A stretch of 24,880 nt of DNA from a virus. Taxonomy: Duplodnaviria > Caudoviricetes. Location of the stretch: IMG/VR virus record IMGVR_UViG_3300030620_000020, positions 1-24,880 of that record. One strand, written 5' to 3'. Shown piece after piece: positions 232 through 23,949 of the stretch. A program made the translations under genes and the position numbers. The notes beneath the pieces are model-generated. The model had not been told where the DNA came from. It searched no databases and saw nothing but the letters and a program-made list of their open reading frames with translations. Positions within the stretch are counted from its first letter, which is position 1. Every line of letters begins with the position of its first letter.

Positions 232-323
232 TTGCCGCCGGGCGAGCTGAGGCACCCCCTAATGCAAACCCAGGTTTTGCATTAGGGGCGAGAAGCTGCC
301 AACGGCCACGACCCCGGCGGCAA
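232..323. repeat. Nested inverted repeats forming a long rod-like hairpin
   Basis: TTGCCGCCGGG (232-242) / CCCGGCGGCAA (313-323) is a perfect 11-bp pair. It encloses CCCCTAATGCAAA (256-268) / TTTGCATTAGGGG (276-288), a perfect 13-bp pair with a 7-nt loop. Confidence 0.85.
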
Positions 324-331
324 TATCCCCC

Positions 332-406
332 GCGGAGGTAGCTCAATTGGCTAGAGCGCGGCGCACTCCCGCGCCGAGGTTGCAGGTTCGACTCCTGCTC
401 TCCGCT
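332..406 (+). tRNA. Non-canonical tRNA with a Gly-type acceptor stem and an 8-nt anticodon loop (CACUCCCG); CCA not encoded
   Basis: Acceptor GCGGAGG/TCTCCGC; U8-A9; D arm GCTC-AATTGGCTA-GAGC; anticodon stem CGGCG (359-363) / CGCCG (372-376); variable loop AGGTT; T arm GCAGG-TTCGACT-CCTGC; discriminator T406. Confidence 0.88.
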
Positions 407-407
407 T

Positions 408-574
408 GTCTCCCGGCTGCCGCTCTTCATCCTTTCAAGCGGGTGCCGGGGGACGCCGCCGCCGCGTGCGGGCGTTATCGATCAAACGCGGCACTTTGTA
501 GGTCACCAACCTGGAGGAGCGGCCCCGGTGTGTCATCGCGGCATCAGGGCCGGTGACGGGGCCGCCGCTTCCAG
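408..574 (+). ncRNA. Putative structured RNA: three consecutive hairpins downstream of the tRNA
   Basis: GTCTCCCGGC (408-417) / GCCGGGGGAC (445-454) with inner CCGCT/AGCGG; GCCGCGT (461-467) / ACGCGGC (486-492); CTGGAG..GCGGCCCC (511-526) / GGGGCCGC..CTTCCAG (558-574). No convincing ORF; ends just before the RBS at 582-590. Confidence 0.45.
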
Positions 575-593
575 CACAAACAAGGAGGGGCAT

Positions 594-881
594 ATGGCAG
601 GGGAGAACCCCATACATGACGTCATCTTCCGCCGCTCAGGCCGCGGTCCGGCGCAGTGTCCGCCGAATCCGGACTATCCGCACGGTATGGACTTGGACGC
701 GGCCGGGACCGCGCCCGCGTCCTGCACGGTCAAGCTGCCGTATCCCGCGCCGGAGTGCGGGCATTTTCTTGTGTCCTGCCACGGGTGTGGGTTGAGCGTG
801 GGGGTCACCGCGGCCGGGCGTCCGGACGATCCCAGCAGCATCAAGCTGCCCTGCCGGCCGGGGCGCGGCTTTCAGGCGTAA
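594..881 (+). CDS. 95-aa Cys/Pro-rich phage protein, probably Zn-binding
   Basis: Strong RBS AAGGAGGGG (582-590), ATG 594; CPPNPDYPHG..C..LPYPAPECG..CHGCG..AGRPDDP..LPC. Confidence 0.85.
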   Translation: MAGENPIHDVIFRRSGRGPAQCPPNPDYPHGMDLDAAGTAPASCTVKLPYPAPECGHFLVSCHGCGLSVGVTAAGRPDDPSSIKLPCRPGRGFQA

Positions 882-3803: not shown

Positions 3804-6800
3804 TTAATTCTTGGGCTTTCCGGCGAGCAAGGTCTGGAGTGCGCTGGCGCCGCCGTCTTCGTTGAGCGCGATGAACGCGTCCACCATACGCTGGACCTGC
3901 GTGGCGGGAAGATGGAACACAATGCCCGCCGTGTGGATGAATGCTTTCCATGCGGCCTCATCCACCTCGCCCTGCCGGACCTGCAGCACGAGTCCGGAGG
4001 CTTCCGCAAAGAAACCCGCGCCAGCCTGTCCTTTATATTGGAAGCCTTCGACCGCGCCCGTCAATTCACGCCCGAACACCACGGTATTCAAGAGATAAGA
4101 CAATTGTTCTTGGGCAAGCCGCTTCATTAGGGCCTCGTCATCATCGCCGCCGCGCATCGCATCGCGCACCGCCGTTTCCAGGAGCATGGGTAGGGTGTAC
4201 AACGTCAACAGGCTCACCGCCAATTTCGCCATGGAGGCCGGATCCCGGAACCGCGTCCGGGCCACCGCTTCCGCGCCCTGGTTGTAAACCACGGAAAAGT
4301 AGCTCATGAACTGAGTGAAGAGTTTAAGCGCGGGCGTGCCCCGCTGCGTCTTCGCGAGATCCTTAATATGTCCGGAACCCTGCGAGTCGATCACAGCCTG
4401 GTCCGCCAGAGCAATGGCCCGCGCTTCGGATTCGCCGGCCGCGCGGGATTTCTCATACTGTCCAAGCCACGTGGGAACATCGGCGATCATCTGCGCGCGC
4501 GAAATCAGCCAGAAGTAGGAATCCTCGATCGTGCCGTAAGTATCGCCAATCGCGAGGCCCGCCTGAGCGCCGATTTGGCCGCCCGGCAGGCGGCCGATCG
4601 CGGCAGCAACCAGGGAACCGCGAGGACTGACCTTATTGCGAACTTCGTTGATTTCGCGCATGAGCGTCTTGTGGCGGAGCCGCATAAACGGCGACTGCTC
4701 GTGAACCCACGTCACGCTCGATTCCATCCGGGCCGCATCCCCCAGCCAACGCGCAATCCCGCGGCCGACCCATCCCGGACCCACACGGCCAAACGACACG
4801 GTGAGCCCCAAAGGCTGGACGAGGGCGGTCATCGTATTCCAGCCCATCCGGGCAATGGAGGTGCCTTGCCGCAACCATTCCAGGGCACGTTCGCCCTGCT
4901 GCTGCACGGGAACGTGGCCGGCCGCGATGTCGCGGACCGCATCCTGGATATTCCGGTAAACGATATCTCCGTAGTGATCGAGAATCGCACGCTGGACGGG
5001 CTTACTGCCGAGCAGCCGGTTGACGTCAATCAGCATCTCGTGGTGCGTGAGATCGTGAATGACTTCCGATGTGTGCTCCCAGATGGTATTCAGGCTCAGG
5101 CGGGGTTTCCGGTTGACGGTGTCTGCCCGTTCTTTCGTGAACCCGCGGCGTGTCGTGGCGCGCGAAAATGCGCCTTTCATCATCTGCTCGGAGATTTCCG
5201 CCGCGGATTGGGCCTGTGTTTGTGGGTCACTGACCGCATACTTCAGCGGAACGTAACCTCCAGGAACCTCACCGAATCGCGTGGGGTACGCCAGCGCCTC
5301 GACCTTTTCCGGAGCGACACCGTAGACGCGTTTCTGCTTGGCTTCAATGTCGGACCAATAGGAATTGACTTCCTTCCAGATGCCCCGCACAAAGGACCAG
5401 TCCTTTTCGTCCAGCGTATCGAGGACGCCTGCGATTTGCTGCTCGTTCCATTTGTAGCCGCCCATGACGCGCTGGCGGCCTTCTGCATTGCCCCAATAGA
5501 GCGCGAGCATGATCCGGGCTTCTTTCGACAGCGATGTGTTGACGGCCGGAATGTAGTCTTTCCGGCTCAGCGCGGCGAGTTCCGGCCGGGAGTAAATCTT
5601 GAGAATGTCCATGTAGCGGAGCGTCGCGGCCTCTTTCATCACCGTTTCCGCGTCGGCCGCTTCGTTGATCGGCCGCATCACATACTCCCAGACGGCGCCG
5701 CCATCTTGACCGCCGTCCATTTGACGGACATACGAGGCTAGTTTGCGCTGCCAGGCGAAGAACCCGGCCAAGCCGCGGCGATGGCGTTCTCCGGGAGCTT
5801 CATCCTCAAGAATCACCGGACGCCGGCCTTTCGAATTTCCCTCGATCGAGCCCGAGACGGCTGCGGCTGCCGACTCCAAGTCGCGCTTGTCCTTCGCCTT
5901 CAGCAGCTTGTTCTTGAGCCGTGCCAGGTGCGCGATATGCTCGACGGCATCCCGCAATCCGGCGAGTTCTTCGACCGTTGCATCCCGGTAGGACATCCGC
6001 CGCGATTCATCGAGCAGTGAGGCCGGGATATCCACGGGCAGGTTTTGGGCTTGGCGGTCGGCGGCCCAGGCGGCGAGCTGCTTCCGCCGTTCAATTTGCT
6101 TATTCGTCAATCTTGCGAAATCGAACCGCTCCCGTAAGGCGTCAATCTGATCGAGGTAGTCGTCGCCCGCCTTGCCGATGCGCTCCCGTTTCTTCTTCTC
6201 ATCGAAGGAGCGCATCAATTGACGGATGGACTCGATCTCTTTTTGCGCATCGAGCGCGGCCCGGTACATTTCCACGTTCAGCAGCTCGCGCTGTTTCCAG
6301 GTGAGCGCCTCATCGAACCTCTGCTCCAACGCCGCTTGCGTGGCCGATTGACTGGCCCGCCGCGCCGCCGCCCAATACGTGCCCGGCCGGACATCGCGGA
6401 CCTTCGCTTCCCGCACGCGTTGTTCCGCCCAGCTCCGGATGACGGAGAGTTTCGGCACGAACCGCTGAAACGTCTCGATCCCGCGGGCCTGCGTTTCGCG
6501 TTGCGCTTGCCGTTCCTGACGTTGACCTTCCCGGAGGAGGGGAGCCGCCTGGCGCTGGGCGCGGGCCAATGCTTTAATTTCTTCAAGTATCACTTCCGCG
6601 CGCCCCTCGGTCATGACTGCATCTTTCGCTTTTTCCGCTGCGGTCCCATCCGTGAGCATGTCCCCGTACTGATCCTTCATCCGGGAATCGGTTTCCGCAT
6701 CGATCAAGGCGTCCATCGGACGGGCGTTGACCAGCGCTTGCACGAGCTCGTCGCCGGAGGAGTAGCCGAGCAGCTCCGCGGCGGTGTCCGGGGAGATCCC

Positions 6801-9800
6801 GTTCTCTTTGCGGTACACATTCAACTCGAATAGCCGTTTGGTGATTCCCGATTCGGAGACTTTCCCGTAGCGGGCATGCAGCCAGGCGGCATCGAGCTTG
6901 AACGGTTCCACGCCTTCGGGGAGGGGTGAACCGTCGGGCAGCGTGCCTTTGCGCAAGACAGCGAGCGCGATGTATTGCTTTTGCTGATGCACTTCCGCCG
7001 CGACGTCCGCACGAACTTCCTTCCGCCGTTGCTGCCACCAGGCCTTCGCGGTCCGCTGGTATTCGTCCATGAATTCGTTTTGCAGCGCATCCCGCCGGGC
7101 GTCGCCCGCCTTCTGGACTTTGTCCCGGTAGAGCTTCAACTGTTCCGGGGAGACGCCCAGGCGTTCCGCCATGCCTTGATCTTCAATTAAGGCGAAGATT
7201 CCGGCTTCCTGCTCGGCCTGGGTGATTTGCTCATCGGTCGCGACCAACCGGTCCATCACCCCGCGGACTTCCGGCGTCAAGTTCACCCGCAGTTGAGACA
7301 GGGAACGGTAGATCGCCACGAGCCAGGCGCGGAACCGGGCGAAGACCGAACGCAATTCCGGGTTCGGCGTTTTCCCTTCCCGGAGATAGGCTTCGAAACC
7401 GCGCGCCCATTGCTCGTGCTGGTCTTTGCCGATCTGGCTGCGCGATTCCACACCGAGCCAGGCCAGCAGCGTACTGTAGTCTTCGACCATCCGTTGCTGC
7501 GTCGGGTTGAGCTCGCCCGGACGGGTCTGCAGGTCCTCGACGAGGTCGCTGAAGACTTCTAGGTAGAAGTGTCCGGATTCGTGGAGGAACGTCGAGAGGT
7601 CGGCTTTCTCGAGGAGTTCGATCGTGAATTGCCGGTTGGGGCCGAAGCGGATGGCGCCGCGCTTTTCGAGGTCGAGTTCGGTGGTTTGGCGGAGTTCGGT
7701 CCGTCCGGAGCGGTCGCGGAGGGAGGCGGAATTATCCACACCGCGGATCTGGTCTGCCGAAAACACGGCATAGACATCGGAAAGGCCTGCTTCATCGTGG
7801 TAGGCATCATCGATATTGCGAAATATCACCCCATCCCGGCCCTGTTCCTTCGCTCTCATCGTGAGTCGATACATCGCGCCCTGACTGATATTGGCTGTTC
7901 CTTGCTCCCGGGCTCGCTTTAGGGCAATCTCGGCTTCACCGCGCGTTTCATAGTCGCCGCCAAACCACTCACCCCCGGCCTCCCCGTAATCCTTATGTAT
8001 CGACCACGAATTAGTGCCGCTCTTCATCACCTCGACTTTAAAATCCACGACCAACGGATTCCTTATCTGAAGGTATACGTCCTTGCGTTTTGGTCCGTAT
8101 GAAGAGGCGACCTGGGAGGAAGACGTGAACCACATCACGCCTTTCATGGACTGCATTACGTATCCGGTGGGCTTCTGTAAATCGAAGCCGTCAAAGTCCT
8201 CGCTCGTGCCGTGATAGACAATCAGCGGATCACCGTTGTCGTCGACGACTTTGCTACCAGCAAACCATTCCTTGAAATTGCCCGGCATCGCCTCCTGCTC
8301 TAACACCGTTCCCGTCTGCGGGTCAATCTCCGGCTGCTGAGAGGCCTCCTGGAGCAACTGCCGGATCTCGGCATTCGTGGCCGATCGTAAATCCACATCC
8401 CGCGCTTTCAGGTAACCCTGCAGTTGCTCCAGGATCATCGCCTGTTCGATCGCCTGGGCATTCTGTTGCGGTTGGGCGTAGACCGGAGTTCCCTGCAATT
8501 CCTTATCGATCGCATCGAGGAAATCCGCGATGGTGGATTGTTCCGGCAGATATCCCGCTTCCGCCGCGGCTTCTCTCGCTTTGTCGAGCGGCAATCCTTC
8601 TTCCCGGATTAGCTTCTTCTGAAACGGTTTCAGTTCTTTGTCCGCTTCCCGCGAGGCGAGATCTCCGCCTTCGTCTTGCACACCGCCTTTGCTCTTGAGA
8701 AAGTCCAGCAGGGACGTCCCGAACATCTCCTGTTGAGACGGCCGCTTTCCCGCGCGCAATCGATCGATCAAGGTATCGAGCGCCACATCGGTATCCGGCA
8801 GCGATCGCAAAATCTCCGGGACGGGGCGGACGATCTTCAGGCGGTAGGGTTCGTAGAGCGCAAAGGGATCCACCCCCGCACGCTCGCCCATGGTCCGGAA
8901 CGTCGATTCCACCAAGGCCGCGTAGGCGTCGATCGTGTCCCGGTTGAAGCCTTGGCCTAAGAGTTGACCGGTGATGTCGTCGCGGATCCGCGCGGCGCCG
9001 CGGAGCTGGTCTTCCGGCGCGAGGATCTCGGGCGCGGGTTCTTCGGCGAGGGCTGTCTCGAACGCTTCCGTTTCCCGGGCGGTCATTTCCTCGGGGGCCA
9101 AGCGGAGTTCTTTCGCAAAGAACGCGTTCGCCTCGGTCGGCGCGATGGTGGCCGCGTACGCCGCGGTGGGAATCGCCAGGTCTTCGCCCGTGGCGACCGA
9201 TTGCGCGTAGTCTTCGCGGGAAATCCCCAGGTCTTCCGCTTTTTGCGCTGGGTCGAGGTTCTGGTCCTGCCAGAAGGTCTGCCAGGATTCCGCGGGGACA
9301 TAGACGGTGTCTAAGGGTCCGTCTTTCGTGGCGATCGCCACCAGCTCCTGGAGCTTCGGCGGCAACCGTTGGAAGGTCTTCGAATTCGTGACGCCTTCCC
9401 CGAGGGCCTGGATGAACCGTTCATTGGTGCGCGCCTGGTTCCGCCGCCGCGCGCCCGCCGCGGATAGGATGATCGCTTGCGCAATCCCGCCCGCACTGCC
9501 GGCGATCAACGCTTCGTACGCCGTCCCCGTCCCAATCTCGGCTTCGGGATTGGTGAGGATTTTCCGCGCGATATCCTGGAGGCTGGCTTCGGACACTTCT
9601 TGCGTGGCTTCCGAGGCGGCGCCGATCAAGACGCCCGTCAATCCGCGGATCGCCCGGTTGCGGATGGCTTCCGGAACGCGCCGCATCAAGACATCTAAGC
9701 CGAGCCGTTCGGTCGCCGCCGTCGCGACCGCTCCCGCGAGAATCGCCAGGTCCTCTTTCGCGGTGATCTCCGAATCCGGAGGCAGATATGGCGCGACGTC

Positions 9801-10625
9801 CCGGAGCTCCGCTTCCCCGATATGCACATCCCCGAACGCCCGCGCGGCCTCCTGGGACATCCGCCGCGGTTCGCTCCGGATCTGTTCCGCCTGGATATCC
9901 GCGCCTTGCGCCAAGAGCGACGCGAAGGAAGCGGCGGATCCACCCACCACCGCAACGCCCACTTGTCCGATGATCTGCCCGACCGCTTCCACGATATCGT
10001 GAGAGATCCCGCGCCGTCCTTCGGGGGCGCGCATCGTCCCGGCCGCTTCCTTGAAGGTCCCGCCCGGCTGCCGGAGGATTTCGCTCGGATTGCCCCACCA
10101 GGGGAGCACGGGTGTCTCGAGAGCCCGGCGGACGGGCGCGGGCAGCACCGAGCCCATGGCGCGCGCCAGGACGTCGTTCAACGTGCCGAGTCCGGAGAGC
10201 GCGCCCCCCACGAATCCGGTCGGTCCTGCAGCCGCCGAGCCGAGATAATCCCGTCCTTGGGTGAGCAGCCATTCGAGCATCCCGAGCTGGGGGAGATCGT
10301 CTTGCGCCAAGGCGGCGTTGTCCGGATCGGCAATCCACTCCGCGAGCTTCGGGGTGTCCCGGAGCATTTGGGAGTACGGCGTGTCGGCGATTTGCGCGCG
10401 TTTCTTAATCGTGTCGAAGTTGCGGTCGATGACCGATGAGGGCAAGCCGGTGCGTTCGGAGAGCGAGAGAATCTCCGCTTCTCTTTCCGGGGATTGCTCC
10501 GCGGCTTGCTTCGTGGCCAAACGCAATGCCGTTTCACTCTGGCGCTGTTGCTGCCGCAGGGTTTCCCGGTAGGGATTGCGGTCCTCATCCTGGAGGAGGG
10601 TTTCTTCGTAAGGATTGAGTGGCAT
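3804..10625 (-). CDS. 2273-aa large polyvalent ejection (internal virion) protein with an LPD22-like N-terminus, ART-PolyVal-like domain and HExxH zincin-like motif
   Basis: Likely start MPLNPY, 7 nt after the upstream stop. Motifs: P.LAEWIADPDNAALAQDD; NFKEWFAGSKVVDDNGDPLIVYHGT..WFTS..VYLQIRNPL..GRDGVIF..VFSADQIR; ADLSTFLHESGH..HEQWARGFEAYLREG. Last gene of the ejection module. Confidence 0.9.
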   Translation of the reverse strand: MPLNPYEETLLQDEDRNPYRETLRQQQRQSETALRLATKQAAEQSPEREAEILSLSERTGLPSSVIDRNFDTIKKRAQIADTPYSQMLRDTPKLAEWIADPDNAALAQDDLPQLGMLEWLLTQGRDYLGSAAAGPTGFVGGALSGLGTLNDVLARAMGSVLPAPVRRALETPVLPWWGNPSEILRQPGGTFKEAAGTMRAPEGRRGISHDIVEAVGQIIGQVGVAVVGGSAASFASLLAQGADIQAEQIRSEPRRMSQEAARAFGDVHIGEAELRDVAPYLPPDSEITAKEDLAILAGAVATAATERLGLDVLMRRVPEAIRNRAIRGLTGVLIGAASEATQEVSEASLQDIARKILTNPEAEIGTGTAYEALIAGSAGGIAQAIILSAAGARRRNQARTNERFIQALGEGVTNSKTFQRLPPKLQELVAIATKDGPLDTVYVPAESWQTFWQDQNLDPAQKAEDLGISREDYAQSVATGEDLAIPTAAYAATIAPTEANAFFAKELRLAPEEMTARETEAFETALAEEPAPEILAPEDQLRGAARIRDDITGQLLGQGFNRDTIDAYAALVESTFRTMGERAGVDPFALYEPYRLKIVRPVPEILRSLPDTDVALDTLIDRLRAGKRPSQQEMFGTSLLDFLKSKGGVQDEGGDLASREADKELKPFQKKLIREEGLPLDKAREAAAEAGYLPEQSTIADFLDAIDKELQGTPVYAQPQQNAQAIEQAMILEQLQGYLKARDVDLRSATNAEIRQLLQEASQQPEIDPQTGTVLEQEAMPGNFKEWFAGSKVVDDNGDPLIVYHGTSEDFDGFDLQKPTGYVMQSMKGVMWFTSSSQVASSYGPKRKDVYLQIRNPLVVDFKVEVMKSGTNSWSIHKDYGEAGGEWFGGDYETRGEAEIALKRAREQGTANISQGAMYRLTMRAKEQGRDGVIFRNIDDAYHDEAGLSDVYAVFSADQIRGVDNSASLRDRSGRTELRQTTELDLEKRGAIRFGPNRQFTIELLEKADLSTFLHESGHFYLEVFSDLVEDLQTRPGELNPTQQRMVEDYSTLLAWLGVESRSQIGKDQHEQWARGFEAYLREGKTPNPELRSVFARFRAWLVAIYRSLSQLRVNLTPEVRGVMDRLVATDEQITQAEQEAGIFALIEDQGMAERLGVSPEQLKLYRDKVQKAGDARRDALQNEFMDEYQRTAKAWWQQRRKEVRADVAAEVHQQKQYIALAVLRKGTLPDGSPLPEGVEPFKLDAAWLHARYGKVSESGITKRLFELNVYRKENGISPDTAAELLGYSSGDELVQALVNARPMDALIDAETDSRMKDQYGDMLTDGTAAEKAKDAVMTEGRAEVILEEIKALARAQRQAAPLLREGQRQERQAQRETQARGIETFQRFVPKLSVIRSWAEQRVREAKVRDVRPGTYWAAARRASQSATQAALEQRFDEALTWKQRELLNVEMYRAALDAQKEIESIRQLMRSFDEKKKRERIGKAGDDYLDQIDALRERFDFARLTNKQIERRKQLAAWAADRQAQNLPVDIPASLLDESRRMSYRDATVEELAGLRDAVEHIAHLARLKNKLLKAKDKRDLESAAAAVSGSIEGNSKGRRPVILEDEAPGERHRRGLAGFFAWQRKLASYVRQMDGGQDGGAVWEYVMRPINEAADAETVMKEAATLRYMDILKIYSRPELAALSRKDYIPAVNTSLSKEARIMLALYWGNAEGRQRVMGGYKWNEQQIAGVLDTLDEKDWSFVRGIWKEVNSYWSDIEAKQKRVYGVAPEKVEALAYPTRFGEVPGGYVPLKYAVSDPQTQAQSAAEISEQMMKGAFSRATTRRGFTKERADTVNRKPRLSLNTIWEHTSEVIHDLTHHEMLIDVNRLLGSKPVQRAILDHYGDIVYRNIQDAVRDIAAGHVPVQQQGERALEWLRQGTSIARMGWNTMTALVQPLGLTVSFGRVGPGWVGRGIARWLGDAARMESSVTWVHEQSPFMRLRHKTLMREINEVRNKVSPRGSLVAAAIGRLPGGQIGAQAGLAIGDTYGTIEDSYFWLISRAQMIADVPTWLGQYEKSRAAGESEARAIALADQAVIDSQGSGHIKDLAKTQRGTPALKLFTQFMSYFSVVYNQGAEAVARTRFRDPASMAKLAVSLLTLYTLPMLLETAVRDAMRGGDDDEALMKRLAQEQLSYLLNTVVFGRELTGAVEGFQYKGQAGAGFFAEASGLVLQVRQGEVDEAAWKAFIHTAGIVFHLPATQVQRMVDAFIALNEDGGASALQTLLAGKPKN

Positions 10626-10632
10626 CCGTGCC

Positions 10633-12378
10633 TTATTTCCGCTCCTGTTGCTTGGTCTGGATATAGAGATCCACAACCGCCTCGTCGGTGACCACGCGGT
10701 TCGCTTCGCGCAGCGCGGCTTCGATCTGCCGCCGGTCCTCACGCGGAATGTCGCGGATGGTCACCTGGACGAGCGGTTTCTCCGTATCCCAGATCCAACC
10801 GTCCACCGTGTAGGAGGTGGCCACGATATCGTCGGCAATGGCCTGGATATCCTCATTCGTGGGTGGCTTTCCCGTCGCCCGCGCTAAAGCTCCCGCCCGT
10901 TCGCCGACCATCTGATGCACCCGCGAGGCCGTGGCGTGGTTTTCTTTCAACCCGGCATCGATGCCCATCTGGCCCAGGGTGTTGTTGATGATCTGCGTTT
11001 CCGTGCGGAAGTCATCGAGCTGCGTGTCGGCCTCCTTCTGTTTCCCTTCCCGGATGTTGTTCTGGAGCCGCTTCAACTCCTTCAGGTCGGTGTCCTCGAT
11101 TCGATGAATCTCCAGGCCAAGGTCGCGCTCGGCGAACCCGGATGGATCGACGTTGGCTTCATCCATCAGCATTAACCACCGCGGCATATCCGTGTCGATG
11201 CGGCCTTTCTCCTGGTACTGCCGGTTGTAGCTTTCCAGTGCGTTCCGCTCGGAACTCGTCAGTTGATTCCACACCGAGGGCGGAACGACGTCGCGCGCAA
11301 ACACCGGACGCCGCCGGTCGATCAAATTCAGCATGTCCGTCATGGTGCGGTCCAGCGCGTCTTTCGCCTGCAGTAACGTGCGCTCCCGCTCCTCGCGTTC
11401 CAATTGCTTCCGGAGCCGCCATTCCGCGTCGACCCGCTGCGTGACCAGGTCGCGCAGTTCGGGCTCTTCGATTTTCCGGGCCGCGTCGAGGGCGTCCGCA
11501 TGGGATTCGAATTGCGCGAGGATCGTATCGGCAAACCGCTGGGACTGTCCGCGGAGGGATCCTTCCTGGAGGGACGATTCCACGCGCGCCAGGTCCTGAC
11601 CGAGGATTTCCGCTTTGCGTATCCGGAAGTAGGTCCGCGCGTTGATGTCCTGGCCGTTGGCGAGCATGCGGTCAATCACGCCCACGTGCGTGGCACTGAC
11701 GGCCGCGTCCATCCGGCGCTGGCTCTCTTCGGCCGGGAGTCCGTAGTCTTCGCCGTGAATCCGCAGGCGCATCCGGATGCGCTCCAGTTCCGTGCCCACG
11801 CGCGTGGGATCGTCGAAGTTCGCGACCGCCGCCTGCTGGGCGTTCAAGATGTAGGCTTCCGTTTCGGCTTGACCGAACTTCTGAAACTCCGCGCTTTCGT
11901 GGCGCGTGACGCGGTCCACCACGTTTTGCCGGCGCGTGTGCGCCAGGCGCATGAAGGCGTCTTTCTGTTCCTGGTTGCTGAGCCCTTCATAGACCGTGTC
12001 TACTCGCTTTTCAAATTCCTCAGAGACTTGGCCGATCAACCCAAACGCGTTCTCCCCTTTGCGCAGCAGGACGCCGTTCCGGGGATCGTCGAGAACCGTG
12101 TTTTCCCATTCCGCAAGCTGCCGGTCGGCGTGCAGGATGCGGATATCGTCCTGCCGCTGTTTTTCGTTCTGCCACTCCTCTTCGCGCTGCCGCATCTGAT
12201 CGGTCGCAATATCCTGCCCCACCCGCGCGAGCGTCTCCCCGAACTGCGCCGCCCCGCCTCCGGAGGGAACGTTGCGGATCACCGGCGCTTCGACTTGCGG
12301 AATCGCGACGCCGCCCCGCCGGACGTTCGGCCGGGGCGCGGTGGGTTGCTGCTGCCGGTAGGTTTGGACTTTGGGCAT
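10633..12378 (-). CDS. 581-aa internal virion (ejection) protein, positional equivalent of T7 gp15
   Basis: MPKVQTY start, predicted helical, G.L.RKGENA motif; lies between the small and large ejection genes. Confidence 0.8.
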   Translation of the reverse strand: MPKVQTYRQQQPTAPRPNVRRGGVAIPQVEAPVIRNVPSGGGAAQFGETLARVGQDIATDQMRQREEEWQNEKQRQDDIRILHADRQLAEWENTVLDDPRNGVLLRKGENAFGLIGQVSEEFEKRVDTVYEGLSNQEQKDAFMRLAHTRRQNVVDRVTRHESAEFQKFGQAETEAYILNAQQAAVANFDDPTRVGTELERIRMRLRIHGEDYGLPAEESQRRMDAAVSATHVGVIDRMLANGQDINARTYFRIRKAEILGQDLARVESSLQEGSLRGQSQRFADTILAQFESHADALDAARKIEEPELRDLVTQRVDAEWRLRKQLEREERERTLLQAKDALDRTMTDMLNLIDRRRPVFARDVVPPSVWNQLTSSERNALESYNRQYQEKGRIDTDMPRWLMLMDEANVDPSGFAERDLGLEIHRIEDTDLKELKRLQNNIREGKQKEADTQLDDFRTETQIINNTLGQMGIDAGLKENHATASRVHQMVGERAGALARATGKPPTNEDIQAIADDIVATSYTVDGWIWDTEKPLVQVTIRDIPREDRRQIEAALREANRVVTDEAVVDLYIQTKQQERK

Positions 12379-13067: not shown

Positions 13068-15587
13068 TCAACCTCCAATATCTCCGCTGGGCATGACGCC
13101 CAGAATGGCGAGCGGCAACGGATCCGACTGCCGGATGGCCACCCGTCCGGGTTTATTCCAGGTCGATTGCAGGGCGACTTCGATGATTTCCGTCCGGAGT
13201 ACTCCTCCGGACTCGCTGAAAATGTCCGTCCCGAGGACCGTGCCGGGCGCTGCGGCGTGGGGCGTCAAGTGGTCGAAGTCCGGACCGGCCTGGACGCCCC
13301 GCGACCGCTCCACCAGGAGCGACGCGGATTTGACGAGTTTCTTCCTGTCGCGCAAGGGCGCGTCTTGGGAATCGAGATCCAGCGTCTCCACGTCCGCCTC
13401 GATCGGCAATCCCACGTGCACAATGTCGTAGAGGCCCGCGAGCGGCACCGCCCCCGTGTCCACGGTGGCCGCAAGCACCACGCCGTTCGCGAGGATCGAG
13501 ACGGCCCGGCCTTCCAGGTGCTCTAATCCCGCCACTTCATCCACCGCCAGCGACCAGAAGAGCGTCGCGGTGTTCCGCAAAGAGGCCGCGACGGTCGAAA
13601 TCGGATTGCCTTTCACCACCGTCGCGGAGACAAATTCCGTGATGACGATGCGGTTGACGTCTTTATTCGTATCGACCGCTGTGGGATCCCAGACGGTGAC
13701 CCCGTTGCCGACGTCGCCGGCCGCGAACTTATCCGAGCTCGCGGTCACCGTGATGAGATCGGCAGTGGTCCATCCGGCAGCCGTCGTCAGGGTGACCGTC
13801 ACGCCCGCGCCCACGTCGTTCACGCCGTTGTAGGTGAGGAAGGAATCCAGGAAATGCCCATCGAGGCGGTAATCCTCGATCTGCCGCGAGGCAAAGCGCT
13901 CGATGTACCGCTTCGTCTGCCCGTCAATCGTGCGCTTTACGACCACATAGACCGCGTCTTCTTCTTTTCCACGGATGGAGGAGCCCGGAGGGGGTGGTGT
14001 GGTTTCCGGTACCGCGACCACGTCTTCGTAGACGTCCCCGTCTCCCGTGTCGTGACGGTGCCATCCCCAGATATCGAATTCGCGGAGGTAGGTCAGGCCC
14101 AGGAGGACCCCGTCGGAGCGCACAGCCCAGTTGATCGAGTGCGGCATTTGCGCGAACGCCATCCGTTCAATGGCCTTCCCTTCGAACAAATGCGGCGCGT
14201 AGACCGTCAGGTCGCGGCCGTCATAGCCTTCCACGGCCGAGTCAAAGCGGAGATCCCGGACGATGCCGCCGCGCGCCTGGACGTAGATTAGGTTGTTGCC
14301 GATCACGGAGGGCTGCACGGTGGAGGCGCCATAGAAGCTCTGCTGCCGCAAGTTGATGGCGGTTGGGCGGAGTACTCCGTCGACGTCCCCCACGACAACC
14401 CACTCGCCGATCGACGTCAAGATGACCAGCTTGCCGACTTCGATCAAATGCCGGATTTCGTTATAACCCCGTCCCGCAATGCGGAACTGGATCGCGTCGT
14501 CATCCTGGATCGGGGAGGAGATCGTATGATTTTTGAAGAACCCGCTCCGCGAGGCAAAGACGTCCTCGGGCAGGGTATTGGTCCCACCGAAGACCAGGCG
14601 GTGCTGGTAATAGCCTGCGGTTCCCGGCCGCTCATCGGCATCTTCAAACAGCACGCGGGGCACGGGAGGCGCCACCGAGAAATCGGGCTCGAAGCCGATA
14701 TCGTTGAAGGCATTCGTGGACGCAATCCCGATGAAGCCGTACAGCCCATTGCCGTCTTTGTCGAGATAGACGTTGTACTCGGCGGCATCGGCCACCGCGT
14801 CCCAGGCCAGGGTATTGGGGGCGGCTTCCGTGGGCGCCGTGCACGTAATATCGTCGTTGGCCGAGGCCACCGATTCTTCGTAATCGCCGTCATGGACAGC
14901 GGTCACTTTGTAGCTGTACGCGAGCGGGCCCGCCGTGCCTTCGGTCGCCGCCAAGTTGGCGGGCGCGGCAATTCCCGGAGCCGTCGCGTAGAGCGTCAGG
15001 GTCCACTTGGCCGGAAACCGTTTCAACTCGCGCGGCTGATACTCCGGGTGGGTGATGGTGAGGACGTCGCCCGACTGGACGACGTGCAGCGCGCTTAAAT
15101 GCCCGGCCGCGTAGGGCGTCGGAATTTCCAGGATATCGCCCGTCAAGGCGTACCAGAAGTCTTCCCAGTTCGTTCCTACGCCCGGCTCATCATTGGCTTC
15201 ATTGGAGGTGTGATCCGCAATGCAGTAGTAGTTGACGCTGTTGTGGACCACCAGATCCCCTTGTTCGTAAGCCGTCACATCCGCCCATGCGTCCGGCGTG
15301 CCCACGGTGACTTGCGCGCCTTCCCGGACGAAGCGGAAGTAGCCGGCGCCGGCTTCGATCACATAGGTGTCGTCCGCCGAGAAAATGAACGTCAGGAGGT
15401 AGGTCCGGACGGACGAGGTTTTGACTTCCACGATGAACTGGTGCCCCGGCCGGTTCGCCACCCCGCCGCCCTTCATCAAGATGAAGTTCCGGCAGGTGGC
15501 TAACGCGGAGAGATACCGCGGAAAGTCCGCCCCTCCGTAAAAGGTGGGGCCGACTTCTCCACCCGCAAAACTGCGTTGAATCGCCAT
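13068..15587 (-). CDS. Tail tubular protein B / nozzle (Bbp13-like), 839 aa
   Basis: QRSFAGGEV.P...CRNF....GG..NRPG; QSGDVL...HP.Y.P; YYQHRLVFGG; GWHRHDT; KRYIERF; IRQSDPLPLAILGV. Confidence 0.92.
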   Translation of the reverse strand: MAIQRSFAGGEVGPTFYGGADFPRYLSALATCRNFILMKGGGVANRPGHQFIVEVKTSSVRTYLLTFIFSADDTYVIEAGAGYFRFVREGAQVTVGTPDAWADVTAYEQGDLVVHNSVNYYCIADHTSNEANDEPGVGTNWEDFWYALTGDILEIPTPYAAGHLSALHVVQSGDVLTITHPEYQPRELKRFPAKWTLTLYATAPGIAAPANLAATEGTAGPLAYSYKVTAVHDGDYEESVASANDDITCTAPTEAAPNTLAWDAVADAAEYNVYLDKDGNGLYGFIGIASTNAFNDIGFEPDFSVAPPVPRVLFEDADERPGTAGYYQHRLVFGGTNTLPEDVFASRSGFFKNHTISSPIQDDDAIQFRIAGRGYNEIRHLIEVGKLVILTSIGEWVVVGDVDGVLRPTAINLRQQSFYGASTVQPSVIGNNLIYVQARGGIVRDLRFDSAVEGYDGRDLTVYAPHLFEGKAIERMAFAQMPHSINWAVRSDGVLLGLTYLREFDIWGWHRHDTGDGDVYEDVVAVPETTPPPPGSSIRGKEEDAVYVVVKRTIDGQTKRYIERFASRQIEDYRLDGHFLDSFLTYNGVNDVGAGVTVTLTTAAGWTTADLITVTASSDKFAAGDVGNGVTVWDPTAVDTNKDVNRIVITEFVSATVVKGNPISTVAASLRNTATLFWSLAVDEVAGLEHLEGRAVSILANGVVLAATVDTGAVPLAGLYDIVHVGLPIEADVETLDLDSQDAPLRDRKKLVKSASLLVERSRGVQAGPDFDHLTPHAAAPGTVLGTDIFSESGGVLRTEIIEVALQSTWNKPGRVAIRQSDPLPLAILGVMPSGDIGG

Positions 15588-22175: not shown

Positions 22176-22639
22176 CGCCGGACCTCCAGCGCCACGGTGA
22201 ACTGCTCCTCCGAGACGGGCGTATAGGCATTCCGCGCGACGAGCACGCCGTAGAGCGCGGGTTGCGCGGCGAGGATCACGCCCGCGCCCACCGACGCCGC
22301 GGCATTGCCGGCCGCTCCCGCGCCCGCATTGACAGCCTTGAACTGATCCGAGCCGAATTCCACGATCCCCACCAGCTTTTCGAGCTCGGCGTCCGTTGGG
22401 GCAAAGGCCGCGTTGTCGGCCGCCACGGTCGGCGCTTCGGTAAAGAGGTAGAGTTCGAGATCCGGCTTCGTCGCTTGGTTGGCCGAGCTGATGCAGGCCG
22501 CGCCCTCGATGCGCGCCCCCTGGTCGTGGTACCGGGGAAGGGGCTCAAACGTCAGGAGCTCCCCGACCACATCCCCGTCGGCGTATTGGGTCGTGTCCGC
22601 CGGGCGCGTCACGGAGGCGGTAATCCGTGCCGCAAACAT
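22172..22639 (-). CDS. 155-aa conserved phage structural beta protein
   Basis: TRPADTTQYADGDVVG..LELYLF...ADNAAF...LYGVLVARNAYTPVS; TGATG overlap. Confidence 0.8.
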   Translation of the reverse strand: MFAARITASVTRPADTTQYADGDVVGELLTFEPLPRYHDQGARIEGAACISSANQATKPDLELYLFTEAPTVAADNAAFAPTDAELEKLVGIVEFGSDQFKAVNAGAGAAGNAAASVGAGVILAAQPALYGVLVARNAYTPVSEEQFTVALEVRR

Positions 22640-22944
22640 CAGATCGCCTCACCGCTGCGCGGGGCTCCGAGCGCGCCGCTGCGCAACGCTTCCGATTCCG
22701 CATCGAGCGCGCGCTGAGCCCCGTTGACTTCTGCGGGCGTTTCGCGCGCCGAAGCGTCCACGCGCTCCATCCATTCCTCACTGAAGTGTTTCGGGGTTTT
22801 CAAGGTGAAGACCGCGCCTTCTCTGCGCCGTTGCAGGCCGTAATAGCCAATCCGGCCGTCCTTCACCCGCACGCGCAGCGGCCCCTCCGCGGGCCGGCGG
22901 GCGGGCGGGTTGTCCGGTTCACCTGTCTTTTTCTTTGTTGCCAT
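22639..22944 (-). CDS. 101-aa small head-associated protein
   Basis: GGAGG 8 nt before ATG 22944; GYYG..RRREG.VF...FSEEWMERV motif, as commonly seen after capsid/cement genes. Confidence 0.75.
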   Translation of the reverse strand: MATKKKTGEPDNPPARRPAEGPLRVRVKDGRIGYYGLQRRREGAVFTLKTPKHFSEEWMERVDASARETPAEVNGAQRALDAESEALRSGALGAPRSGEAI

Positions 22945-22966
22945 AAGCGGCCCCTCCGCGGGCCGG
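22877..22966 (-). repeat. Exact 21-bp direct repeat containing an RBS hairpin
   Basis: AGCGGCCCCTCCGCGGGCCGG at 22877-22897 and 22946-22966 (+ strand), 69 nt apart and in frame (RPAEGPL). Confidence 0.9.
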
Positions 22967-23007
22967 GGGTCCGGCGGGCTTGTGGTCACCCGCCGGGGGA
23001 TTCAGGT
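22945..23007 (-). promoter_or_regulatory. Intergenic double hairpin: GC stem followed by an SD-in-loop hairpin
   Basis: Minus strand CCGGCGGG-10nt-CCCGCCGG (22996-22971), then GGCCC-GCGGAG-GGGCC-GCTT-ATG. Confidence 0.6.
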
Positions 23008-23949
23008 TTAGCGGTACGCGTACGCGGCGAAATGCGCCACGTCGATGCTCTTCACCGCCGCGCTGGTCGAGGCGAGATAGAGCACCGGGCTGCACTCTTC
23101 GTCGACGTCCAGCGCCGCAGCAATCTGCGTGATCTGGACTTTGTTCGCGAAACAGGTCATGACGCCCGCCGCGGAGATTTCCACCCGGAGGCGGATATCG
23201 GTCGCGGCCGCGGGCATATCCTGCCCGGTGTCCACACCCGCCGCCGTCGTCGCAATCGATGCCGCTTCGTCGCTCTTGTTGTGCGGCGCGAAGAGCCGGT
23301 CGCCGTCCGTCAAGCCGACGTCCATGAACAGCCCGGCCAGGTCGTCCTGGACGAGGGTTAAGGTCGTGGTGGCGCCCGTGATGGCTTCCACGAGTCCGTC
23401 CGCGGCCGTTCCCAGGAATCCGCAGAACAGCGCCCGGAGTGTGATCGCCGAGACGTTCGTGAAGAGCGTATCGAGGACCAGGAGTTGATGCTGGTCCGGC
23501 TGCATGACCCCGGCGCGCATGCCGACCGCCGCGACTTTCGTGTCCGCGGCGTTGGCGGTTAACCGGGCGCGCCGGCCGCCTTCCCCGGCGGCCTGGACCA
23601 CGAGCCCGGAATCGGTTTCGACGATCCCATCGCCGAAGACGCGCAATCCGGAACCGGGAATGACGGCCTCCGCATCGGTATTGGCGTCCGCTTTCCCGGC
23701 GCCGTCCCGGAAATCGGTGTGCACGCCAAACAACGGCCGTTGATCGAAGCCCACGGGGGTGTAATAGGGGCTCCCGAGCGTGCCTTCGTTGCAGAACAGC
23801 ACGCCGTTCAACGTGTCGAACAGAAAGTTCCCCGGCTCGACATACCCGACCAGCGTGCCGTTGGTGCCGCTGGAGGGCGCGCCCTCGAATTGCAGGACGC
23901 GCGGAGACTCGCCCACGTAGGGCGGAATATACGGTTGATGGGTACGCAT
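23008..23949 (-). CDS. 313-aa putative head decoration/fibre protein
   Basis: RBS AAGGAGG; N-terminal GAP..G..GT..G...PG....DT.NG.L..N.GT..SP motif; beta-rich C-terminal domain; directly after the cement gene. Confidence 0.8.
   Translation of the reverse strand: MRTHQPYIPPYVGESPRVLQFEGAPSSGTNGTLVGYVEPGNFLFDTLNGVLFCNEGTLGSPYYTPVGFDQRPLFGVHTDFRDGAGKADANTDAEAVIPGSGLRVFGDGIVETDSGLVVQAAGEGGRRARLTANAADTKVAAVGMRAGVMQPDQHQLLVLDTLFTNVSAITLRALFCGFLGTAADGLVEAITGATTTLTLVQDDLAGLFMDVGLTDGDRLFAPHNKSDEAASIATTAAGVDTGQDMPAAATDIRLRVEISAAGVMTCFANKVQITQIAAALDVDEECSPVLYLASTSAAVKSIDVAHFAAYAYR

Follow-up and report, generated by a model that had tools for sequence, protein, structure and literature searches.

An eight-nucleotide-loop tRNA-Gly-type gene in a podovirus-like phage fragment, a candidate non-ribosomal glycine donor

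We describe a tRNA-Gly-type gene with a remodelled anticodon arm and no encoded CCA (332..406, plus strand) in a soil phage DNA stretch of 24,880 nucleotides (hereafter the window), and we hold with moderate confidence that it is a non-ribosomal glycine donor whose partner enzyme would lie outside the assembled part of the genome. Its structure and glycine identity bases are intact, its architecture recurs in other genomes, and in other phages this architecture is linked to Mom, the enzyme that in phage Mu takes glycine from Gly-tRNA-Gly and attaches it to adenine in DNA (PMC13219725). The window contig is a fragment of a podovirus-like phage whose genes include those for tail, internal virion and capsid proteins, in a record that is 57% complete by its own estimate. 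The tRNA is surrounded there by small genes that lack annotation, with a palindrome (256..288) on one side of it and a hairpin (408..454) on the other.

The gene was recognised by sequence, ARAGORN, Rfam and folding. The 5' acceptor strand (332..338, plus strand) pairs with 399-405 and carries G1:C72, C2:G71 and G3:C70, with U73 at 406, which together form the complete bacterial glycine identity set (PMC9976931), as the first-pass annotation of this DNA had proposed. The D arm (341..357, plus strand) is canonical by sequence and by the Rfam model, with G18G19 at 349-350, and the T arm (382..398, plus strand) has G49:C65, C50:G64, A51:U63 (384:396) and a canonical T loop at 387-393. U8, A14 and A15:U48 (346:381) are present and all 21 stem pairs are intact together with the elbow; the Rfam tRNA model scores the gene at 53.6 bits (E 4.8e-10). 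The anticodon arm (359..376, plus strand) combines a 5-bp stem (359-363/372-376) with an 8-nt loop, CACUCCCG at 364-371, and in folding and alignment the C364:G371 pair extends it to a 6-bp stem with a 6-nt open loop. If the loop register is set from its 3' end, UCC (367-369) occupies positions 34-36, C stands at both 33 and 37, and A365 is the extra base on the 5' side; on this register, taken from alignment, 368-369 would be C35 and C36, which are GlyRS determinants (PMC9976931). The 7-nt loop, U33 and purine 37 of canonical elongator tRNA-Gly are therefore all lacking, and both this and the closing pair agree with the earlier reading. ARAGORN returns a single tRNA across the window, of undetermined type and with a four-base anticodon, ctcc, which together with the Rfam score is the outcome that had been foreseen for it.

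An assembly indel had been raised as a point to check. In run X1, a Logan contig of depth 8.4 has the same letters as positions 1-1500 of the window, with 0 differences and 0 gaps, and a second run, X2, has no coverage of the loop. X1 is the probable source sample, so that the contig argues against an assembly indel and does not amount to a second isolate; an assembly artefact is rejected to the extent that a single contig from the same sample permits. We conclude that both the tRNA gene and the 8-nt length of its loop are real.

Regarding its surroundings, the near-perfect palindrome or hairpin lies 44 nt upstream of the tRNA (z -3.8) and may have a role in processing or regulation, and the stable plus-strand hairpin that directly follows the discriminator (z -3.0 for 407-470) may serve 3' processing or stability. 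Further along, a 95-aa Cys-rich protein (594-881, plus strand) has 199 homologues and falls in no Pfam, PHROG or Atlas family; Atlas searches with this ORF and with ORF 1087-1470 gave no usable family. On the minus strand, 3804-10742 is a 2312-aa ORF with ART-PolyVal and LPD22 domains, a polyvalent protein that is probably delivered from the virion.

The loop is at edit distance 4 from any canonical glycine loop, and under a rough model the chance that 4 random changes all fall in 8 bases and spare 42-67 others is 1e-4 to 7e-4. We searched for similar genes with loop-blind scans, defined by a Gly acceptor and a long D-to-T distance (17 viral and 120 metagenome loci), and with scans requiring YCC in the loop (63 viral and 20 genome loci); L133, being the record of the window itself, was left out of lineage counts. 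Sixteen glycine tRNA sequences that are canonical apart from a one-base insertion, 0 of them with A51:U63, were excluded as likely errors or simple mutants. Among 12 members with an 8-nt loop that were chosen by hand, 96% of stem cells are paired, and the loop-closing 32:38 pair is kept in 10 of the 12 when aligned, with both sides changed in 6. Additionally, in three orthologous Bacteroidales prophage loci (L215:4993-5066, L221:4993-5067 and L235:1412-1484) the 8-nt loop is invariant while the stems differ. Recurrence with compensatory stem changes, together with the invariant orthologue loops, indicates that the 8-nt design recurs under selection, and the earlier claim that the loop is not the product of random decay is supported. 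Close homologues of the window locus were not found in IMG/VR, and a blastn search of GenBank phages returned, among the best 20 of 361 records, ordinary tRNA-Trp/Asn. Relatives reached through the nozzle protein had 0 tRNAs in 9 loci, and those reached through ORF 594-881 had one tRNA call in 5 loci, spurious-looking on reading. No RNA holder of the window tRNA is listed.

The T stem had been overlooked in the first-pass annotation. With the additive values of PMC3239215, the predicted EF-Tu affinity of the window T stem is -9.6 kcal/mol, and the same values give bacterial tRNA-Gly class means of -10.8 (UCC) and -11.0 (CCC, GCC) kcal/mol; the tight G51:C63 T stem of canonical elongator tRNA-Gly is absent here. 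A dedicated non-ribosomal tRNA-Gly has been described for staphylococcal wall synthesis, and this non-proteogenic (NP) tRNA has A51:U63 and a predicted affinity of -9.6 to -9.7 kcal/mol (PMC7826273). We parsed 151 distinct Gly-body sequences and dropped 39 with imperfect stems before counting. A51:U63 was found in 10 of 18 remodelled sequences with 8-9-nt loops (loop-blind scans, window included), in 0 of 53 canonical ones and in 0 of 14 with a one-base insertion. When near-identical sequences were merged and the window was removed, 7 of 14 remodelled-loop lineages had A51:U63, against 1 of 114 canonical tRNA-Gly called by ARAGORN (p 3e-7), and CC at 35/36 is kept in 5 of those 7. Weak pairing at 51:63 with a kept CC would be the pattern expected of a charged tRNA that is steered off EF-Tu.

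The link to a glycine-transferring enzyme comes from other phages. Of 35 records picked for odd glycine tRNAs, 7 have Mom (PF25680), always beside the tRNA, and none of 50 controls has it; these seven records have a D-arm subtype different from that of the window. From 567 related IMG/VR loci the best 80 were taken as Mom loci, a set biased to the clade of the seven Mom proteins, and in 53 of these 80 a Gly-acceptor element lies at most 70 nt from the end of mom, compared with 2 of 1500 random windows. A strict parser passed 26 distinct Mom-linked elements (35 loci); A51:U63 occurs in 16 of them and a paired 32:38 in 24, and the exact T stem of the window in 5. Four tRNAs downstream of a Mom or Mom-like gene have a C:G-closed 8-nt loop as in the window, among them the Mom-linked L273, L329 and L334. 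The L135 tRNA, which came from a loop-blind scan with no Mom query, is about 79% like the window tRNA and begins 3 nt past an ORF fragment that matches Mom (local E 4e-6); by Pfam this match spans 26 residues with 24.4 bits (E 2.6e-5), below the cut-off of 27.1. The window tRNA has the Gly acceptor, the weak A51:U63-type T stem, the paired 32:38 and the kept CC of the genes beside Mom homologues. It differs from most of them in its D and T loops, which are degenerate there and canonical in the window (G18G19 and TTCGA), as in L135.

The 3' ends of the Mom homologues in L263-L342 mostly carry a tRNA-Gly-like gene within a few bases of Pro-Tyr-Pro codons. These genes have degenerate D and T loops and often overlap the end of the ORF, and many are missed by ARAGORN. 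In L260 (G819 22220-23462), the tRNA is directly preceded by a tandem pair of Mom-like genes, of which the second gives two separate hits. A Gly-body tRNA of the same design as in the window (8-nt loop, A51:U63) was also found in L051:616-689, L113:301-374 and L116:301-374, in a non-phage-looking setting, and in L051 it adjoins a fatty-acid desaturase gene; the design is thus not confined to Mom, and this tRNA might be a cellular non-ribosomal donor. Mom is absent from 28 of the 35 odd-tRNA records, and from 4 of the 7 odd-tRNA virus records that are at least 90% complete.

In the window record itself (57% complete), neither Pfam nor a custom six-frame profile detected Mom; no mom gene adjoins the tRNA, and the Mom profile found no remnant upstream. 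The same incomplete record has no PF22559 match, and no Fem transferase was found by Pfam among 29 window ORFs. A DruA search gave no match in the window record nor in any other record scanned and so carries no weight. PF22559, a phage GNAT-like family, was matched in 2 of 78 records, both of which belong to the three genomes that carry the Bacteroidales 8-nt tRNA; the link does not reach significance (2/28 vs 0/50, p 0.13). In the L235 genome it is part of a DAM-like/GNAT-like fusion far from the tRNA, and in G002 the PF22559 gene is on contigs other than that of the tRNA.

For a glycine donor, we propose that the window tRNA would be expressed and receive its CCA, and that the host glycyl-tRNA synthetase probably charges it, C35 and C36 being retained if the loop is read from its 3' end. 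Weak binding, as predicted by the additive model, would let the charged tRNA avoid EF-Tu, and the 8-nt loop with C33 and C37 would make it a poor decoder. Its glycine would then probably pass to a GNAT enzyme of the phage that depends on Gly-tRNA, for instance Mom, presumably encoded in the unassembled part of the genome. The first-pass annotation had offered three functions; the weak EF-Tu T stem and the likeness to Mom-linked tRNAs favour the donor, and the quadruplet decoder among them gained no support.

A different end to the same history would be that the gene came from a mom-tRNA cassette which has lost its enzyme and that the tRNA is now a jobless relic, which we regard as unlikely. 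Gln-Tyr-Pro codons (321..329, plus strand) end 2 nt before G1 and resemble the Pro-Tyr-Pro end of mom; a mom-like Pro-Tyr-Pro end precedes the tRNA in 44 of 53 Mom-linked cases and has a chance rate of 0.96%, although this motif test was devised only after the Mom loci had been seen. These codons are a weak indication of a possible cassette remnant and would be compatible either with a donor captured from a cassette or with a relic. The absence of Mom from the incomplete record would also suit a relic, but the elbow and every one of the 21 stem pairs are preserved and the Mom profile finds nothing upstream.

Of similarly low probability is that the tRNA is a decoy, a charged or uncharged look-alike of tRNA-Gly which, unshielded by EF-Tu and off the ribosome, would soak up toxins or defences that target tRNA-Gly. 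The acceptor has the determinants of FaRel2 (G1:C72, C2:G71, G4:C69 and purine5:pyrimidine68; PMC11559606) and of TacT (U73/G71; PMC9976931), and many odd glycine tRNAs stand without a Mom gene. However, ordinary tRNA-Gly has the same FaRel2 and TacT determinants, a literature search found no paper on such a phage tRNA decoy, and the strongest genomic link found for the design is with Mom.

The tRNA could also be a nuclease-resistant triplet decoder of GGA/GGG that replaces host tRNA-Gly cut by an anticodon nuclease, and altered-loop phage tRNAs have been proposed to evade defences (PMC10264068, PMC11464382). The intact elbow and a UCC in register from the 3' side would fit this role, and SufJ, whose 8-nt loop has its extra base on the 5' side, still forms three pairs when bound in the A site (PMC4238358). 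Against it, A51:U63 is almost absent from decoding tRNA-Gly (1/114) and C33 and C37 replace U33 and purine 37, which leaves this role improbable.

We consider a natural +1 frameshift or quadruplet decoder of GGAG/GGGA sites very unlikely. The window tRNA has an 8-nt loop with an extra base 5' of the anticodon, like sufD (tRNA-Gly) and SufJ (tRNA-Thr), but these are single insertions in normal tRNAs (PMC4238358), whereas the window shows about four loop changes and a weak T stem, which would disfavour delivery of the tRNA. Evolved UAGN four-base decoders converged on U at the inserted position (PMC4764823), so that an 8-nt loop can decode; the window loop contains one U. No dedicated shift site is evident in the window. 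In the 26 window genes there are 98 in-frame sites: GGA-G occurs 44 times vs 54.5 expected (p 0.08), with no significant depletion, and GGG-A is enriched (54 vs 35.4 expected). The end of the nozzle gene had been put forward as a test site, and the position of its in-frame GGAG at 13076 and the open +1 frame, with 230 codons of the next gene, are as claimed. A role in shifting gained no support: the site is a GGAGG five bases before the GTG start of the next gene and is accounted for as its ribosome-binding site, and the nozzle gene has, upstream of it, four further quadruplets that lead into the same +1 frame. Least credible of all is transcript punctuation, a tRNA-shaped cleavage signal with a loop free to drift, since strong hairpins on both sides of the tRNA and a Bacteroidales prophage slot between tail genes that holds different tRNA-like genes would suit it but the retention of Gly identity and of CC at 35/36 and the invariant loop in three orthologues would go unexplained.

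Returning to the glycine donor, its nearest described counterparts are the staphylococcal NP1-3 tRNAs, with which the window shares the Gly identity set, A51:U63, a predicted affinity of about -9.6 kcal/mol, a six-pair anticodon stem and a UCC-type loop (PMC7826273). It differs from them in having G49:C65 and C50:G64 instead of A49:U65 and U50:A64, a canonical TTC T loop instead of TGC/TGT, and a 6-nt open loop (5-nt in NP) with C at 33; moreover, it is phage-borne, with no Fem transferase in view. The window is thus a non-proteogenic tRNA-Gly variant with an 8-nt loop, an intact elbow and no adjacent enzyme; it stands outside the staphylococcal NP family, and it is a donor for Mom only as a candidate. 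Mu Mom (PMC13219725; PF25680) is alike in that a phage puts Gly-tRNA to a non-ribosomal use. That Mom draws glycine from tRNA was shown in 2026 with host tRNA as the tested source, the E. coli tRNAs used in PMC13219725, and the window has no mom in its assembled part. No mention of a phage-encoded tRNA was found in the main text of that paper, nor of an adjacent tRNA gene in its preprint. Among titles and abstracts, with subscription papers outside the scope of the search, we found none describing phage-encoded donor tRNAs. Within these sources, the Mom-linked phage tRNA-Gly-like genes are not a published family.

If phages do supply a translation-silent donor, this would explain how DNA can be modified without draining translation, and it would account for a set of undetermined phage tRNA calls. 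A51:U63 with a closed loop could then be a search mark for new tRNA-dependent enzymes. The window locus alone is a weak test case as its partner is unseen; stronger cases are offered by L135, L329 and the Mom-linked set. More tentatively, and with doubt on our part, EF-Tu-avoiding phage glycine tRNAs might be a mobile module able to work unlinked from its enzyme, with the 8-nt-loop, intact-elbow form serving a Gly-tRNA-dependent enzyme not yet recognised as Mom and marking a chemistry of glycyl transfer to phage DNA or proteins that is yet to be discovered.

Some minor observations were made on the way. The tRNA of the Bacteroidales loci L215, L221 and L235 is flanked by two genes of the tail region, a short way upstream of the tape measure gene and behind a conserved upstream element, and orthologue searches in 401 genomes each gave no further 8-nt member. 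A tail-chaperone frameshift role for these tRNAs was considered and rejected: the gene downstream forms a single open frame and, by eye, there is no evident common GGA shift site. In L242:1150-1520, L245:1400-1800 and L246:1400-1800, the same prophage slot is occupied by other tRNA-like genes, namely one with a long anticodon-arm insert, one Ala-end element and one tRNA-Ser. A prophage cluster in L345 (9408-14164) contains ATP-grasp, amidoligase/DAM-like/GNAT-like fusion and octopine-dehydrogenase-like genes and is a candidate modification pathway. Finally, the tRNAs of L017, L019, L025 and L123 have a GCG/CGCU acceptor and a common 9-nt loop without CC, and tRNAs of this kind are paired with a tRNA called Phe(AAA) in three phages.
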